Below are positions 1-4,454 of a stretch of DNA of 4,454 bases, one piece after another. The first letter of the stretch is position 1; every line of letters starts with the position of its first letter. A program made the position numbers and the translations under genes. The stretch covers positions 1-4,454 of IMG/VR virus record IMGVR_UViG_2645727555_000025; one strand, 5' to 3'. The notes under the pieces were generated by a model. That model searched no databases and was not told where the DNA came from. It saw only the letters and a program-made list of their open reading frames with translations. Source of the stretch: a virus. Lineage: Duplodnaviria; Heunggongvirae; Uroviricota; Caudoviricetes.

Positions 1-39
1 TTGACGGACTTCAGGGGAAAAACGAGTATTTTTAGTCAT
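1..39 (-). CDS. IS3-family transposase OrfA, N-terminal 13 codons only (partial, runs off window)
   Basis: ATG at complement 39..37 preceded by AAGAGGT; translation MTKNTRFSPEVRQ... matches the remembered N-terminus of IS629-type OrfA. Confidence 0.65.
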   Translation of the reverse strand, partial: MTKNTRFSPEVRQ

Positions 40-68
40 CCTGTTTACCTCTTTCTCAGGAAGTTTAG

Positions 69-93
69 TCTCCAGGATTCCCGGGGCGGTTCA
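69..93 (-). repeat. Terminal inverted repeat (IRL) of the IS3-family element
   Basis: Reverse complement of 69-93 is TGAACCGCCCCGGGAATCCTGGAGA, a 25-bp end beginning with the 5'-TG typical of IS3-family termini. Confidence 0.65.
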
Positions 94-124
94 AGCAGGT
101 GATTTCAGCTCCGCTTTAAATGAG

Positions 125-706
125 TTGGAGTTAGCTCATGAGCCTATAAACGTAATTAAGGCTGAAAGTGTTGAATCTGCCGAAAACGAGCCAGAACAAT
201 TGGGATTTATTGAGGTTGAAGAGTGTGTTGAGGTTAATGATGAATTAAAAGTTCAACAGTCAAATGATAGCAATACAAATAAAAAAGCTCGTACTGCAAG
301 AGGTCCTCGTTTTACTTTAAGTGATAAAGATGATTTGTTTTTCAATAAAGCAGGCTTAGAAAAAGATATTTTCTTAGACGCTTACGAAAACGCGCCTGTC
401 AAAGCAAAGGATAAGATATTAAACCTTCTTAATTGGTTTAGCGGAGGTCCAGATATTAGTGTTTACACGGTAATTTCCATGAGACACCTTCTCACAGAAA
501 AGAAGGCTACAAGTAATAGTATTAAGATTGCTTTAATGAGCAATCCAGAAAAACCGTATCCGCTTAACACTGCGTCAACTCAGGCTGGGCAAATGATGGC
601 TGTATTTCCAGCTACAGGAATTGCTGTTAGAGACGGTGGAAATCTAACATTGAACGAAGAATCACCGATCGTTAAGAAGTTTGTCGCGGAGTACACTATT
701 GGATGA
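125..706 (+). CDS. Hypothetical protein (193 codons from TTG), acidic N-terminal segment; probably the 3' portion of a gene interrupted by the IS insertion
   Basis: Frame is open from nt 5 to stop at 704-706 with no ATG/GTG before 479 and no convincing SD at TTG 125; the IS end lies at nt 93, so the native 5' end is likely displaced. No recognisable motif. Confidence 0.45.
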   Translation: MELAHEPINVIKAESVESAENEPEQLGFIEVEECVEVNDELKVQQSNDSNTNKKARTARGPRFTLSDKDDLFFNKAGLEKDIFLDAYENAPVKAKDKILNLLNWFSGGPDISVYTVISMRHLLTEKKATSNSIKIALMSNPEKPYPLNTASTQAGQMMAVFPATGIAVRDGGNLTLNEESPIVKKFVAEYTIG

Positions 707-746
707 CGTTCCCCTACTGAAAATAAAGCCCATAGAGAGCTTTATA

Positions 747-776
747 GTGCTGGGTAAGCTAACCCATACCCAGCAC
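747..776. other. Stem-loop (10-bp stem GTGCTGGGTA / TACCCAGCAC, 10-nt loop)
   Basis: Perfect inverted repeat 747-756 versus 767-776, read directly. Confidence 0.4.
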
Positions 777-780
777 CACA

Positions 781-828
781 AAAACGCGCCAGAGAGCTTC
801 TTGTTCGCATTTCTGGCGCGTTTTATTT
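781..828. terminator. Bidirectional rho-independent terminator
   Basis: 13-bp perfect stem AAAACGCGCCAGA (781-793) / TCTGGCGCGTTTT (812-824) with GC-rich core, A-tract on the 5' side and TTTTATTT on the 3' side; lies between the ORF at 125-706 and the methyltransferase gene. Confidence 0.6.
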
Positions 829-857
829 GATTGCCATACATAAAATCAAATGCAAAA

Positions 858-877
858 ATAGGTAATCACTTACCTAT
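858..877. promoter_or_regulatory. Inverted repeat ATAGGTAA-TCAC-TTACCTAT just upstream of the methyltransferase start; candidate operator or translation-initiation hairpin
   Basis: 8-bp arms at 858-865 and 870-877, 4-bp spacer, ending 11 nt before ATG 889 and adjacent to the purine-rich RBS region. Confidence 0.3.
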
Positions 878-888
878 CGAGAAAGAAG

Positions 889-1482
889 ATGATTGCAGCC
901 GAAAAAATCAAACAGCGAAAGCGCGACAACTCTCTTCGTGACCTCTGGAGAACACCTGATTGGCTGTTTTCTGCCATTCAACGTTATCTTGGAGTGACAT
1001 TTGATGTTGACGTTGCCTGCAACAAGGACAATGCAAAGCTGCCTATTTTCATAGGCGTTGAGCGCGATGCTTTGAAATCTGAATGGGGGCAGCCAGGTAC
1101 AATTGCCTTCCTCAATCCACCCTACTCCAAAATCTCCCCCTGGATTGATGCGGCTATACGTGAGCAGGCTCGCGGAGTTACAACAGTGATGCTAATTCCT
1201 CAATCCCTCGATACAAAGTGGTATGAGCGTGCAACAGAGTATGCGAATGAGACGATTATTCTGTCTGGTGGCCGCGTTGCGTTTGTCGAGCCTGACGTCA
1301 ATTTGGGTCAGGTAGAAGTAAACATCAACCCCGGTGGCAGTATGCTCGTTGTTTTTCGAGGGTTTTGTCAGGACGCTGGGCACTCTATAAGCAAGATCCC
1401 TTTGGACGTCATGAAAAGTCTGGGAGGGTATGATCCTGCGAATGTGATCAGGAAAAAAAGACCATCAAAGAAGGCTGCTTAG
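889..1482 (+). CDS. Phage-type DNA N6-adenine methyltransferase (Dam family, Pfam PF05869-like), orphan
   Basis: 197 aa; N-terminal WRTPDWLF motif and NPPYS catalytic motif (the D/N-P-P-Y/F motif IV of amino-methyltransferases); purine-rich stretch before ATG 889. Confidence 0.85.
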   Translation: MIAAEKIKQRKRDNSLRDLWRTPDWLFSAIQRYLGVTFDVDVACNKDNAKLPIFIGVERDALKSEWGQPGTIAFLNPPYSKISPWIDAAIREQARGVTTVMLIPQSLDTKWYERATEYANETIILSGGRVAFVEPDVNLGQVEVNINPGGSMLVVFRGFCQDAGHSISKIPLDVMKSLGGYDPANVIRKKRPSKKAA

Positions 1483-1503
1483 TTTGCTCTGGCGTCTGTA
1501 ATT

Positions 1504-1562
1504 AGCCTGCTTCTGTATATATAAATAACTACATATTAATTATTAATATACGGAAGCAGGCT
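1504..1562. repeat. GC-clamped inverted repeat (12-bp arms) enclosing a 35-nt AT-rich palindromic core; candidate terminator or operator/promoter element
   Basis: AGCCTGCTTCTG (1504-1515) pairs with CGGAAGCAGGCT (1551-1562), one G-U equivalent. Core contains the perfect 17-bp palindrome ATATTAAT-T-ATTAATAT (1533-1549). Lies 22 bp after the methyltransferase stop. Confidence 0.45.
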
Positions 1563-1668
1563 GTTTTGTATCAGAGACTCCCAGACCTGAACATCACTAC
1601 AGAATCCACTAGACCCCCTTCCCAGACGCTTTAAAATCGATTTTATGAACCACTTTAAGGAAACCAAC

Positions 1669-1899
1669 ATGTCATACCCGACTAATGTCGTTGCGCTCGT
1701 AGAGAGCGATTTTCTGGCCCAGGCTCGTGAAATGATGAAAGATCGTGAGCAGGCTTTCAACTTGTACGAGTGGGCAATTAAGTGCTTGCATCTTGGCGAG
1801 CATCGCGAACTTGTTGAACAGCTTTTAGGTGAGTTGATCAATGAGGTGTTTGCCTTGAATGTTCAACTACATGGTCGAGAAAATAATCAATCACAATGA
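1669..1899 (+). CDS. Hypothetical small protein (76 aa)
   Basis: ATG 1669 preceded by AAGGA (1657-1661) at 7-nt spacing, preferred over the ORF-track ATG at 1645 which has no SD. Acidic, helix-like composition; no recognised family. Confidence 0.55.
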   Translation: MSYPTNVVALVESDFLAQAREMMKDREQAFNLYEWAIKCLHLGEHRELVEQLLGELINEVFALNVQLHGRENNQSQ

Positions 1900-2319
1900 T
1901 AGATAAGTACAAACTATTCATAAAGTGAATTGTAAGTGCTAAGATCTGATAGTTTCCAGTCGTAGACTGGAGGCTCGACCTGATGGGTGGGGGTAAGCGT
2001 CACTGGCGTCAGGTTTAAAAAAGCTCACTACCAGCGTAGAACCGGTGCCGTATAGGTGTCGGGGAAGGGGGAACCAAAGTGAGCAGAGACAAGGGTCACT
2101 TTATGATTGTCGAGTCTGGGGTGTTTCGAGAGGTTGAATCCAGTACTCCCCTTCATAAAGTGTGGGAAGATCTCGGTTCTGGGGTGCTGTCATCCATAAC
2201 TTCCCAAGTCTAAGCTGGCAGTAGACTTAGACCATAGCTTTTCAGGTTATGAAACGACCAGGTTGGTGAGGAATTTTATACTCACCTCCCTGGGAGAGTA
2301 TTACCTGAAAAGACAACCT

Positions 2320-2357
2320 CTCACTTCGTTCGAGGTGAACTTCACTCACTTCGTTCG
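2320..2357. repeat. Two perfect 13-bp direct repeats CTCACTTCGTTCG (2320-2332 and 2345-2357) flanking the small palindrome GTGAAC-TTCAC
   Basis: Read directly; about 125 bp upstream of the RNase H start codon. Confidence 0.6.
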
Positions 2358-2418
2358 TTCAGTTCAGGTTTATAAAAACCTGTTCTGGGAAGTAATTTGT
2401 TTATTTTAATAATTATTA

Positions 2419-2443
2419 ACACGCACGCGTGTGCGCACGCGCG
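2419..2443. promoter_or_regulatory. 25-nt perfectly alternating purine-pyrimidine tract (ACACGCACGCGTGTGCGCACGCGCG) with nested palindromes, in the RNase H promoter/5' UTR
   Basis: Strict Pu/Py alternation across 2419-2443; palindromes CACGCGTG (2424-2431) and GTGCGCAC (2431-2438); preceded by an AT-rich stretch (2393-2418) and followed by SD AGGAG (2471-2475). Confidence 0.5.
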
Positions 2444-2480
2444 AGGAAAAATCGGCGCGGCGCTTGATTCAGGAGTTTAT

Positions 2481-3071
2481 ATGACGACGAAGACACCAGC
2501 CCGATCGCAAGCAAAAACTCGCAAAAAAGACAAAAACAAAAATTCTCCCCGCACCAATCCCACAACGCCTGTCGTAGAGTTCAATCCCCAGCTTAAAACC
2601 GTGAAAATCTTTAGTGATGGCTCTTGCCTTAAAAATCCGGGTGGCCCGGGCGGTTACGGTATCGTTCTCCAGTATCGTGGTGAGGAACGCGAGTTCTCAG
2701 ATGGTTTTCATAGCACCACCAATAACCGCATGGAGATGATGGGGGCACTTATCGGGCTGGAGCGTTTGAAATATCCATGCAACGTTATTTTGCACTCTGA
2801 TAGCCAGTATCTGAAAAACGGCATGACACAGTGGATGAAATGGTGGAAACGCAATGGATGGATGACTTCTGACAAAAAACCGGTAAAGAATGTTGATCTG
2901 TGGAAGCGTCTGGATGAGGCCGCAAGTCGACATAATGTTCGCTGGAAGTGGGTTAAAGGTCACGCCGGGCATCGTGAAAATGAAATATGTGATCGACTCG
3001 CGAAGATCGCAGCTTTTTCAGCAGCAGATATGCCTCACAAGAAAGATATTGGTTTTGTTTATAACAAATAG
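2481..3071 (+). CDS. Ribonuclease HI homolog (RNase H type 1 fold) with a ~40-aa basic, low-complexity N-terminal extension
   Basis: 196 aa. From residue ~40 it aligns with E. coli RNase HI as I remember it: catalytic D (IFSDGSC), E (NNRMEMM), D (HSDSQY), H (KGHAGH), D (ICDRLA) and the GYG motif are all present. N-terminal 40 residues rich in K/R/T/P. Strong SD AGGAG 5 nt before ATG 2481, preferred over the ORF-track TTG at 2397. Confidence 0.85.
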
Positions 3072-3168
3072 TAAGTAAGTGTTTACCTATCATTTTAAAT
3101 CATGTATCTTATCGGCGTCAGGATGACAATGTGTCGGTAAGACACAGTTCCAGGATGGAACGAGAAAG

Positions 3169-3190
3169 GCGGCTGGCAATCGCCAGCCGC
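3169..3190 (+). terminator. GC-rich hairpin (9-bp stem, 4-nt loop), possible terminator/attenuator after the RNase H gene
   Basis: GCGGCTGGC-AATC-GCCAGCCGC followed by AACTCTTTCT, a weak U-tract. Confidence 0.4.
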
Positions 3191-3219
3191 AACTCTTTCT
3201 GACACTGGATGGAGTCCAC

Positions 3220-3714
3220 ATGGCACGTCAAACCTATTTCACTTCTGTAACTAAACGTCCTCGTTCTTTACGTCAAATTTTGGCCGAATTATTTAGCGGT
3301 CGTGTTATGTCACGTCTTGATGAACTAGAGACTACCGTTCGGTTGCTGAATGAACGTTTAGATAATCAAGCGTCAGTTGTTGCGAACGTGGGGGCGATTG
3401 TTGCCTCTGGTTCTTCACGCGAAGCGAAAAATGCACGGCCTTTAGTGAAGGAGAAAAACAACAAGGACAGTTCGAATGGAAAATTTTCAAAGAAAGAGGC
3501 TGAAACCAATGGCCTACGTTCTCATTATAGTTTCACTGGCGACGGTAGCCGTTCCAGCCGGTCAGAGCCTTTTGATGCCGGATTCATCCATCACCACACC
3601 TTCGTCGACGACAATTACCACCACTCCAGTGGAGCGTCCTGTCACTCTGGATGGGATGGCGGTGGATGCGATACCTCAAGTTCATCCAGTTACTCAGGAT
3701 CATGCTGTGACTAA
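3220..3714 (+). CDS. Hypothetical protein, predicted coiled-coil N-terminal half; C-terminal third is low-complexity (His/Ser/Cys/Gly) and may not be translated as drawn
   Basis: ATG 3220 with GGAG (3211-3214) at 5-nt spacing; first ~85 codons look like genuine coding sequence (amphipathic LDELETTVRLLNERLDN). From ~3480 the +1 frame looks more gene-like than this frame. Confidence 0.4.
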   Translation: MARQTYFTSVTKRPRSLRQILAELFSGRVMSRLDELETTVRLLNERLDNQASVVANVGAIVASGSSREAKNARPLVKEKNNKDSSNGKFSKKEAETNGLRSHYSFTGDGSRSSRSEPFDAGFIHHHTFVDDNYHHSSGASCHSGWDGGGCDTSSSSSYSGSCCD

Positions 3715-3727
3715 GGCGGTTGTATGA
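3476..3727 (+). CDS. Small secreted or membrane-anchored Thr/Pro-rich protein (83 aa) with N-terminal signal-peptide-like segment
   Basis: ATG 3476 preceded by AAGGA (3463-3467); basic n-region MENFQRKRLKP, hydrophobic h-region MAYVLIIVSLATVAV, then PAGQS and a T/S/P-rich region; codon choice looks typical for enterobacterial genes; stop TGA overlaps the next ATG. Confidence 0.5.
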   Translation: MENFQRKRLKPMAYVLIIVSLATVAVPAGQSLLMPDSSITTPSSTTITTTPVERPVTLDGMAVDAIPQVHPVTQDHAVTKAVV

Positions 3728-3912
3728 ACTGGTTTTCAAATCACTTTGGAAAAATTTGGCTGGCAATTCTTGCCCTCATGGCCGCCGGTTGGGTATCGAA
3801 CATTATAAAACTTGTTTGCTCTGGCGATCTCCAGTTTCAGGCTGGCATGACCTTGGCTCGTGTAGTTGGGATTTTTATTTTTCCAGTCGGTTCGGTACTT
3901 GGTTATTTCTGA
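3724..3912 (+). CDS. Small membrane protein (62 aa, two predicted transmembrane helices)
   Basis: ATG 3724 overlaps the upstream stop (ATGA), SD-like AAGGCGG upstream; hydrophobic segments IWLAILALMAAGWV and LARVVGIFIFPVGSVLGYF. Preferred over the W/C-rich ORF at 3720-3950 in another frame. Confidence 0.5.
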   Translation: MNWFSNHFGKIWLAILALMAAGWVSNIIKLVCSGDLQFQAGMTLARVVGIFIFPVGSVLGYF

Positions 3913-3944
3913 CGGTTGTTAGTGCATATGCATTGACCGTCTTT
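3911..3944 (+). terminator. Hairpin (GACGGT / ACCGTC stem around the palindrome TGCATATGCA) followed by CTTT; possible terminator
   Basis: Arms 3911-3916 and 3936-3941; inner palindrome 3923-3932; short T-run 3942-3944. Confidence 0.35.
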
Positions 3945-4005
3945 GCGTAAGCAATTTATTTAACTAGAAAACAACTTGTTTTGACAAATAACAAAAGGAA
4001 AACAC

Positions 4006-4416
4006 ATGTTAGGTTTCTTCAAAAAGAAAACTCGTAAAGCAGTTATCGAAGTCAAAAAAATGGAGAACCGTGATGCGGTTGAGGCCACCGTGTGGGGCGC
4101 GTACATGATCTCCTATGCCGACGGCACATGTGACGCAAAAGAAATTGCCATTCTTGAGAAGACAATTGCAGCTCTGCCTGCGTTTTCTCCGTTTGCTGGT
4201 GAAATTGCCCAAATGAGCGCCAATATCCGTGCTCGTTACGAAGCGTCCCCTCGTTCTGCTAATGCACAGGCTATTCGTGAGCTGTCTGATATTGCTGGTA
4301 CTCCAGAGGCGGTCGATGTTCTGTGTCTGTGCCTTGATATTGCCGATCAGGATGGCATTGGTCGAGTAGGCAGCCTGACGGCTGCGGCTTGTCATGGTCT
4401 GCAATTACCGTTATAA
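4006..4416 (+). CDS. TerB-fold (tellurite-resistance TerB-like) protein, 136 aa
   Basis: SD AAGGA (3995-3999) 6 nt before ATG 4006. N-terminus M-x-x-FF-K and two A-D-G-containing helical segments (YADGTCDAKEIAILEKTI; DIADQDGIGRVGSL) resemble the paired ADG motifs of TerB as I remember them. Confidence 0.7.
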   Translation: MLGFFKKKTRKAVIEVKKMENRDAVEATVWGAYMISYADGTCDAKEIAILEKTIAALPAFSPFAGEIAQMSANIRARYEASPRSANAQAIRELSDIAGTPEAVDVLCLCLDIADQDGIGRVGSLTAAACHGLQLPL

Positions 4417-4454
4417 AAACAGGCAATGTCATTGTCTTTCAGGTGGTTATATGG

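Follow-up and report, generated by a model that had tools for sequence, protein, structure and literature searches.

Z-DNA-forming (CG)n and (CA)n tracts in Escherichia coli plasmids were reportedly described by the Wells laboratory in 1987. GC-rich discriminators or initial transcribed regions are a feature of supercoiling- and guanosine tetraphosphate (ppGpp)-sensitive promoters such as rrnB P1, tyrT and fis. The subject of this study is a natural sequence that can be set beside both, a 25-nt tract of strictly alternating purines and pyrimidines (R/Y tract) that precedes an RNase HI gene, rnhA, at positions 2419-2443 of a 4,454-nt stretch of caudoviral DNA (IMG/VR virus record IMGVR_UViG_2645727555_000025, positions 1 to 4,454; the whole stretch is called the window below). 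E. coli plasmid pECOH89 matches this region at 100% identity, and relatives of the region include Salmonella phage SSU5, S. Typhi pHCM2 and hundreds of non-mobilizable plasmids of ~110 kb from Klebsiella, Escherichia, Enterobacter, Salmonella and Citrobacter; the window is from a phage-plasmid of the SSU5/pHCM2 type.

The tract shares with the engineered Z-DNA tracts a strict CG and CA/TG alternation, here over 12 dimers, a transition that is predicted near physiological stress, and insertions and deletions (indels) of even length. It differs from them in being natural and conserved across a plasmid family, in having a mixed sequence and not a pure repeat, in being known from sequence alone and in adjoining an all-AT spacer that would compete for superhelical stress. 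With the discriminators of rrnB P1, tyrT and fis it shares an abrupt passage from AT-rich to GC-rich DNA, which could make opening supercoiling-dependent without any Z-DNA; in contrast to them, scans detected no -35/-10 pair, its GC block has 3-4 times the length of a discriminator and the spacer is unconserved in length and sequence.

We tentatively propose that the tract is a selectively maintained, GC-rich alternating block that forms the distal border of a conserved non-coding module, and we favour a role at the level of DNA. In this module an extended -10 promoter is followed by a ~440-nt structured RNA, whose last two hairpins are of a kind that is elsewhere seen in phage replication origins, then by a near-pure-AT spacer of 25-45 bp, the R/Y block of 14-29 bp, AGG-A5-10 and a swappable cargo, which is rnhA in the window. 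Its parts in the window are as follows.

1937-1945, + strand: extended -10 promoter TGcTAAGAT, from an alignment of 15 diverse relatives
1952-2392, + strand: structured non-coding RNA of ~440 nt with at least 16 helices, from covariation; no Rfam 15 match
2317-2335, + strand: 'ori-type' hairpin CCTC-[TCACTTCGTTC]-GAGG (helix 15), its core present in >40 unrelated phage contigs
2336-2366, + strand: second hairpin TGAACT-[loop containing CTCACTTCGTTCG]-AGTTCA (helix 16), with three compensatory pairs
2393-2418, no strand: all-A/T spacer, sequence not conserved
2419-2443, no strand: alternating GC-rich R/Y tract, characterized by its departure from chance, its conservation and diversity, and a Z-DNA estimate
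2444-2454, + strand: AGG-A5-TCG, a purine run with a variable A-tract; CGCGCG-AG(G/A) is common to the SSU5 and divergent clades
2455-2463, + strand: GC-rich leader segment GCGCGGCGC, predicted by minimum-free-energy folds to pair with the 3' half of the tract around an A-rich loop
2471-3071, + strand: Shine-Dalgarno (SD) sequence AGGAG (2471-2475) and RNase HI gene (ATG 2481, stop 3069-3071; Pfam RNase_H, E = 1e-44), annotated rnhA in relatives

The alternating tract and its conservation

Both direct reading and a script give the tract as ACACGCACGCGTGTGCGCACGCGCG, with the alternation interrupted by A2418 on the left and by A2444 on the right. Written as pyrimidine-purine steps it comprises seven CG and five CA/TG dimers, which places it among potential Z-DNA-forming sequences, defined by at least six uninterrupted dimers in which CG and CA/TG dominate. 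It contains two overlapping 8-nt palindromes, CACGCGTG (2424-2431) and GTGCGCAC (2431-2438), and a direct repeat, CGCACGCG, at 2422-2429 and 2434-2441 (12-nt spacing). The runner-up alternating run in the window has 12 nt. A run of 25 nt did not arise in any of 2000 shuffles of the window with dinucleotides preserved (mean 11.7, maximum 22), and the analytic expectation of such a run in the window is 4e-5. In the complete 111,741-bp plasmid pECOH89 the tract is again the longest alternating run, the second having 14 nt, and the expectation for a run of at least 25 nt is 0.003. The tract is real and beyond chance. An earlier sequence-only reading of the window had described the perfect alternation over 25 nt, the predominance of CG and CA/TG steps, the two overlapping palindromes and the agreement with the sequence requirement for Z-DNA, and all of these are borne out. 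It had also set the tract between an AT-rich, promoter-like stretch and the SD. The placement is correct, as the 5' neighbour is the 26-nt all-A/T stretch 2393-2418 and the 3' side continues through AGG-A5-TCG and a GC-rich segment to the SD and the RNase HI start codon, but the promoter character is not: sigma-70 promoter scans of the window and of SSU5 gave no match in the spacer and no -35, only loose TAnnnT-like hexamers picked out by eye.

The loci compared were 14 annotated ones, 79 from IMG/VR that were found via a conserved 23-nt motif, and a few metagenome or genome loci; diversity values and substitution numbers are plain counts without correction for phylogeny. Every SSU5-clade member examined (~90 relatives) has an alternating tract of 14-29 nt at the same position, between the AT-rich spacer on one side and AGG-A(5-10) on the other, and no member examined has lost it. 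There are 20 sequence variants of the tract in this clade, and a minimum spanning tree over them holds 11 transitions against 1-2 transversions. Internal indels between variants measure 2 nt (six cases), 4 nt (two), 8 nt (one) and 10 nt (two). Because the changes are transitions and even-length internal indels, alternation outlives nearly every one of them. The variant ATACACGCACACGCACACGCACACGCGCG is non-palindromic, and one lineage (L039, L053 and L093) is without internal palindromes and has only direct CACACG repeats.

Nucleotide diversity was counted over 60 distinct rnhA-type sequences.

Tract: 0.117
Spacer: 0.29
Leader: 0.30
rnhA codon position 1: 0.129
rnhA codon position 2: 0.112
rnhA codon position 3: 0.395

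The observed diversity of the tract is thus 2.5-3.4 times below that of the spacer, the leader and rnhA third positions, and near that of codon positions 1 and 2. In the E. coli clade, where the flanks are 97-100% identical, the tract is invariant in almost all genomes while the adjoining A-run varies from A5 to A9, which argues that the tract is not a hypermutable repeat. A contingency locus, or phase-variable repeat, was considered and rejected, as the tract hardly varies among near-identical genomes. We note that the A-run itself (2447-2451 in the window) ranges from 5 to 10 A among near-identical genomes, by slippage or by homopolymer sequencing error. From these sequence comparisons we conclude that the tract is kept under selection in phage-plasmids of the SSU5/pHCM2 type.

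Two further clades bear on how much of the tract is needed. In a divergent clade (Cronobacter and metagenomic relatives) only 6-11 alternating bases are present, and CGCGCG-AG(G/A) alone is the core shared with the SSU5 clade. In a third clade, represented by Klebsiella oxytoca pCAV1099-111 and a K. pneumoniae plasmid, gene order is unchanged and RNase H is present, and there is no alternating tract. A metagenome scan returned five loci, four of which fit the RNA model, all in or near the divergent clade; one viral-contig pattern search with tight gaps matched the divergent clade only; and a genome-contig scan with a loose pattern gave ~120 mostly chance matches with one true relative, in Kluyvera.

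Supercoiling, the AT spacer and a proposed role for the tract in DNA

The B-Z energetics of Peck & Wang and of Ho/Ellison/Rich are reviewed in PMC10783518, which gives 0.7 and 1.3 kcal per CG and CA dimer, respectively, and 10 kcal for nucleation. In a two-state B-Z estimate of the Z-DNA propensity of the tract, the transition is expected at a superhelical density (sigma) of -0.033 in a 112-kb domain and of -0.042 in a 3-kb domain, with competition from spacer melting ignored; for the shorter tract variants the estimate is -0.04 to -0.05. The average unconstrained superhelicity of E. coli is usually quoted as about -0.025 to -0.03. By this estimate a B-Z transition would be within reach of transcription-driven stress and borderline for the average unconstrained sigma. 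The neighbouring spacer is 25-45 nt long in relatives, variable in sequence and length and always AT-rich, and in duplex instability 2393-2417 ranks in the top 0.017% of all 25-bp windows in the 111.7-kb plasmid, directly beside the most Z-prone stretch.

At the DNA level, the block could serve as a stiff GC boundary and as a Z-prone sink beside the melt-prone spacer. When gyrase and transcription of the RNA gene put the DNA under negative superhelical stress, opening would then be confined to the spacer, and part of the stress could be absorbed by a B-to-Z flip of the block at a sigma of about -0.035 or below. We infer a DNA-structural role because alternation and GC content are kept where hairpins are not, because the partner gene is irrelevant and because the contrast with the spacer is extreme.

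Several points weigh against such a role. The critical sigma of the tract, calculated with spacer melting left out of the competition, is more negative than the usually quoted unconstrained value for E. coli, and the RNA promoter is upstream of the tract, on the side from which transcription sends positive and not negative supercoils ahead of the polymerase. A Z-DNA or other DNA-structural effect of the tract in vivo is a prediction, and the constraint on its sequence could equally reflect an RNA or a protein-binding role. The low diversity of 0.117 comes from 25 columns only and takes no account of kinship. Even-length indels are expected from slippage in a sequence of this kind anyway. The excess of transitions was considered as proof of selection for alternation and rejected, being not significant against the 65% transitions of the neighbouring RNA core (binomial P = 0.04-0.12). 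Finally, the long tract is dispensable for the locus, since the divergent clade has 6-11 nt of it and the third clade none.

One explanation that draws on the same observations is a largely neutral simple-sequence expansion, in which the CGCGCG-AGG seed alone would be functional and the rest would have arisen by slippage of CG/CA dimers and of CACACG hexamers and would persist by chance. This would fit the restriction of the core common to the SSU5 and divergent clades to CGCGCG-AG(G/A), the range of tract lengths (14-29 nt) with indels of 2, 4, 6, 8 and 10 nt including the hexamer duplication, the lack of significance of the transition excess and the absence of the tract from the third clade. 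We nevertheless regard it as unlikely, as it does not predict a tract diversity so far below that of the spacer, the leader and rnhA third positions, or a tract that is invariant within clades where the A-run varies. Long alternating tracts are also known deletion hot spots in E. coli, yet no loss was seen in the SSU5 clade.

A selectively maintained block with a role in DNA is the reading that we continue to favour, with the reserve stated above. Natural Z-susceptible sites seldom exceed 6-7 dimers (PMC10783518), and because long natural Z-prone tracts are rare in this sense, the tract would be a good natural test case for Z-DNA or GC-clamp function in bacteria: a 12-dimer tract under apparent constraint is spread across hundreds of clinically common phage-plasmids from Klebsiella, E. 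coli, Enterobacter and Salmonella (pHCM2).

The cargo slot, promoters and the probable transcription of the tract

Several plasmids and viral contigs have other genes in place of the rnhA body, namely those for a TIR-NLR defence protein (PADLOC, 8e-166) or a DUF262 protein, betT or hypothetical genes. These other-cargo alleles keep the RNA, the spacer, an alternating tract of 14-22 nt and AGG-poly(A)-TCG; divergence from the window starts right after TCG, and similarity returns in the last ~90 nt of rnhA, left as a scar. The cargo hotspot lies directly 3' of the tract, at 2455-2984 in the window and in the equivalent slot of L011-L015, L075 and L087. The divergent clade is without rnhA at this slot, and the first gene in Cronobacter encodes a Tad2-like protein (Thoeris anti-defence). 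The tract is not tied to rnhA, because it is kept under other cargo and because the third clade has RNase H without the tract; this independence is seen directly in the alleles, and by sequence comparison the tract is not an rnhA-specific control device.

These findings bear on the model put forward in the sequence-only reading, in which the tract flips to Z-DNA under negative supercoiling and so tunes a promoter in the AT stretch that drives rnhA. Its Z potential is high, with 12 dimers and a critical sigma of -0.033 to -0.042, and alternation is kept while sequence varies; the AT stretch lies directly upstream, and -10-like hexamers can be made out by eye at a fixed offset in several lineages. 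However, the promoter scans left the spacer of both the window and SSU5 without a match, there is no -35, and neither the sequence nor the length of the spacer is conserved. The tract is kept without rnhA, RNase H is found at the same locus without the tract, and Z-susceptible sites and the Z-form are depleted in prokaryotic 5' gene flanks (PMC10783518). A Z-DNA switch for the RNase H gene would be physically plausible on the energy estimate, the comparative evidence does not support it, and we consider it very improbable.

The only well-conserved promoter is ~480 nt upstream of the tract and drives the structured RNA. Of 15 diverse relatives, most have the pattern TG-n-TA-nn-AT and all have its TAnnAT hexamer, within variable surroundings; the SSU5 homologue was called as TTTAAA-17-TAAAAT with TG, and the window copy scores 8/12, which is under the scan threshold. 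Given the extended -10 at 1937-1945, the transcript is likely to start near G1952. A scan for intrinsic terminators found none on either strand of window 1850-2550 and only weak minus-strand sites in SSU5, and where such a terminator would have a U-run directly behind its GC-rich hairpin, the tract is followed by AGGAAAAA. As no intrinsic terminator was detected in between, read-through from the RNA gene into the tract and rnhA is plausible, and the leader of the cargo gene probably includes a transcribed copy of the block. Where the cargo is rnhA, the 3' half of this copy could then pair with 2455-2463 around the A-rich loop.

Another possibility is that the tract works as an RNA-level element: once transcribed it would form a 5' structure, internally or with 2455-2463, mark a processing boundary in the AU-rich spacer, and stabilize the downstream messenger RNA or tune its translation. 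The lack of a terminator between the RNA and the tract would allow this, the constraint is at the level of sequence, and the 3' half of the tract can pair with the GC-rich leader segment in every rnhA-type lineage, the analogue of 2455-2463 being present in rnhA-type relatives. In the Klebsiella lineage of L010 the fold has an 8-bp outer stem, GCGUGCGC/GCGCACGC, with a z-score of -3.45. Across six lineages, however, the folding z-scores of spacer, tract and leader were -0.87, +1.05, -3.45, +0.12, -0.76 and -1.36, so that five of the six fold no better than dinucleotide shuffles (z -1.36 to +1.05), and the hairpins differ by lineage. The SD is not sequestered in the window fold. The other-cargo alleles keep the tract without the pairing partner, one lineage has no internal palindromes, and no consistent pairing partner for the tract was found in the upstream RNA across lineages. 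The pairing with 2455-2463 is indistinguishable from what chance would give for a GC-rich alternating sequence, and carries little weight because such a sequence is self-complementary by nature. The strong hairpin in the 5' untranslated region that had been offered as an alternative to Z-DNA thus fails as a conserved feature, there being different hairpins, non-palindromic variants and no partner under other cargo, and an RNA-level role in the wider sense appears doubtful to us.

Coding through the tract was also considered and rejected. A TTG open reading frame (ORF) spans 2397-3071, and longer RNase H starts are given in SSU5 and in one Klebsiella record, but the A-run of 5-10 shifts the frame. 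The extended RNase H annotations reach through the tract or into the RNA gene (window 2397-3071, L002 1864-2628, L008 1660-2328). The SD and start ATGACGAC of rnhA are kept among relatives, and this conserved SD with ATG 2481, together with the frame-shifting A-run, points to the long N-terminal extensions being wrong.

The upstream RNA, its origin-type hairpins and neighbouring features

The RNAalifold consensus of the upstream RNA, from 15 diverse sequences, has 101 pairs, 32 of them with compensatory double changes. A count over 16 helices with 97 pairs shows pairing in 99.1% of cells and covariation at 32 pairs; when partners were slid by 1-3 columns only 1-4 pairs covaried, and none of 500 shuffles matched the observed values. 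The many G-U pairs place the RNA on the + strand. The diversity of ~1975-2392 is 0.063, below that of rnhA codon positions 1 and 2, and its identity to relatives is 90-95% as against 80-84% for rnhA, so that the RNA region outconserves the flanking genes. About 94-100% of enterobacterial SSU5-type plasmids carry the locus. Rfam 15 scans of the window and of five related loci gave no family, and the RNA itself had no match at E <= 1 in four lineages; the best matches (E = 0.12-0.8) are far under gathering scores and are biologically irrelevant (a hepatitis C virus stem-loop, a CsrB fragment and microRNAs). ARAGORN found no transfer RNA or transfer-messenger RNA, the literature searched yielded nothing that ties SSU5/pHCM2 to a non-coding RNA, and a 2026 preprint on phage-plasmid copy number deals with a different family. 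The covariation argues that the ~440-nt structured RNA is genuine, and it is previously uncatalogued as far as the literature and Rfam 15 were searched. It resembles the GOLLD, ROOL and OLE class of large structured phage and plasmid RNAs in its length of several hundred nt, its many covarying helices, its location on a mobile element and its conservation beyond that of neighbouring genes, and differs in having no Rfam 15 match, in being found, as far as searched, in enterobacterial SSU5-type phage-plasmids only, and in its two origin-shared hairpins.

We note that in the third clade a different ~450-nt non-coding region lies upstream of RNase H (L274 2726-3295 and L275 2726-3375), with a canonical terminator at its end and compensatory hairpin changes between its two members. 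No similarity of this region to the SSU5 RNA was detected and it has no Rfam match; it could be another RNA that goes with RNase H, or a homologue that has diverged very far.

Helices 15 and 16 at the 3' end of the RNA carry a 13-nt direct repeat, CTCACTTCGTTCG, in their loops (2320-2332 and 2345-2357). The core CCTC-TCACTNCGTTC-GAGG of the first hairpin is found in >40 unrelated phage contigs of 40-60 kb (L033, L225, L230, L237 and L258 among them), where the outer stems differ yet stay complementary. In five of these contigs it is inside replication-initiator genes of different families (lambda O-like or 'replication initiation protein'), mid-gene, on the coding strand and right after iteron-like repeats and an A/T-rich stretch, and a DnaC-like loader gene lies 3' of one of them. 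A position in the middle of the initiator gene, after iterons and an AT stretch, is the classical position of a lambdoid origin. Elsewhere the hairpin is near a reverse transcriptase, a thymidylate synthase or genes without a known function. Two lambdoid-type hairpin loci had no BLAST match in the annotated phage collection, and a literature search for the hairpin sequence found no paper that contains it. In L033 a 13-nt alternating palindrome, ACGTGCGCGCACG, follows 6 nt after the hairpin and is itself followed by a purine-rich run, all within the initiator frame (6330-6350). That an R/Y tract generally accompanies the ori-type hairpin was considered and rejected: L033 has one of 13 nt and L225 a weak one of 9 nt, and the other contexts have none.

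The window locus shares with the lambdoid origins the hairpin core at 2317-2335, identical to the five initiator-gene sites, an AT stretch beside a GC-rich palindromic block and, in the case of L033, an R/Y palindrome close to the hairpin. It differs in having no iterons beyond the two hairpin loops and no initiator gene, in the order of its elements, in covariation of the RNA type and in the lack of support from GC skew. The locus can also be set beside ColE1 RNA II, with its RNase H processing, and T4 oriF/oriG, each a promoter with an unwinding element downstream. It shares with them a long structured transcript made ahead of a stretch that is prone to unwinding, a purine/A-run at a place where a primer could end, and a neighbouring RNase HI gene. 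It differs in having no counterpart of antisense RNA I and no homology to RNA II in sequence or structure, and in that RNase H is dispensable there.

Perhaps, by analogy with these systems, the tract is part of a transcription-activated, RNA-primed (R-loop) lytic origin. In such an origin the RNA would act as pre-primer, DNA would unwind at the AT spacer, the GC tract would anchor a stable RNA-DNA hybrid, the purine/A-run would mark the switch from RNA to DNA, and RNase HI would do the processing. The initiator-gene sites of the 19-nt hairpin core in five unrelated phages, after iterons and an A/T-rich stretch, would be consistent with this, as would the spacer, among the most melt-prone sites of the plasmid, the purine/A-run that follows the tract, the adjacent RNase HI gene and the layout, which resembles that of ColE1 RNA II and of T4 oriF/oriG. 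The hairpin loops and the CGCGCGAGG seed are, moreover, unique to this locus in pECOH89. Over the full plasmid, however, GC skew and gene orientation gave no inflection and no orientation switch at the locus: the cumulative skew is monotonic through it and has its extremes close to repB, around 110.7 kb and 6 kb, and this is weak evidence on an origin because the skew is dominated by uniform gene orientation. A tblastn search with the L033 initiator found no homologue in pECOH89, some contexts of the hairpin have no evident connection with replication, the locus can do without rnhA and the order of elements is unlike that of lambdoid origins. We hold an origin of this kind to be improbable. 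Its more specific form, in which a ~440-nt pre-primer with two origin-type hairpins would leave a persistent hybrid over the GC block that is cut at the purine/A-run by the adjacent RNase HI, or by a host enzyme where rnhA is swapped out, is likewise an outside chance in our judgement. An RNA-primed origin, if true, would put ColE1/T4-like origin logic into a large temperate phage. If the module is a control unit for replication or expression, it would explain how the accessory cargo is driven or how lytic replication is set off. The surroundings of the tract may outweigh the tract itself, with an uncatalogued ~440-nt RNA, a hairpin in common with unrelated phage origins and a slot for RNase H, defence and anti-defence genes.

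All genes of the window are on the + strand, and its remaining features are as follows.

125-706, + strand: hypothetical gene
889-1482, + strand: Dam methylase gene
1669-1899, + strand: hypothetical gene of 76 amino acids
Between the 1669-1899 gene and the RNase HI gene: non-coding stretch of ~580 nt
3' of the RNase HI gene, + strand: two hypothetical genes, then a TerB-like gene
3169-3190, + strand: GC hairpin GCGGCTGGC-AATC-GCCAGCCGC, a 9-bp perfect inverted repeat followed by a poor T-run, 3' of rnhA

The GC hairpin at 3169-3190 is a possible end of the transcription unit. Downstream of the Dam methylase gene, an inverted repeat with 17-nt arms, AGCCTGCTTCTGTATAT and ATATACGGAAGCAGGCT, spans 1504-1562 around a 25-nt all-AT loop and is followed by GTTTTGT; it is probably the terminator of the dam unit, and the least stable 25-bp duplex segment of the window falls inside it. 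Two small hairpins at 3116-3161, upstream of an ORF at 3220, carry CAGGAUG in their loops and give a weak CsrB-like Rfam match (E = 0.12); they may be CsrA-binding sites in the leader of that ORF.

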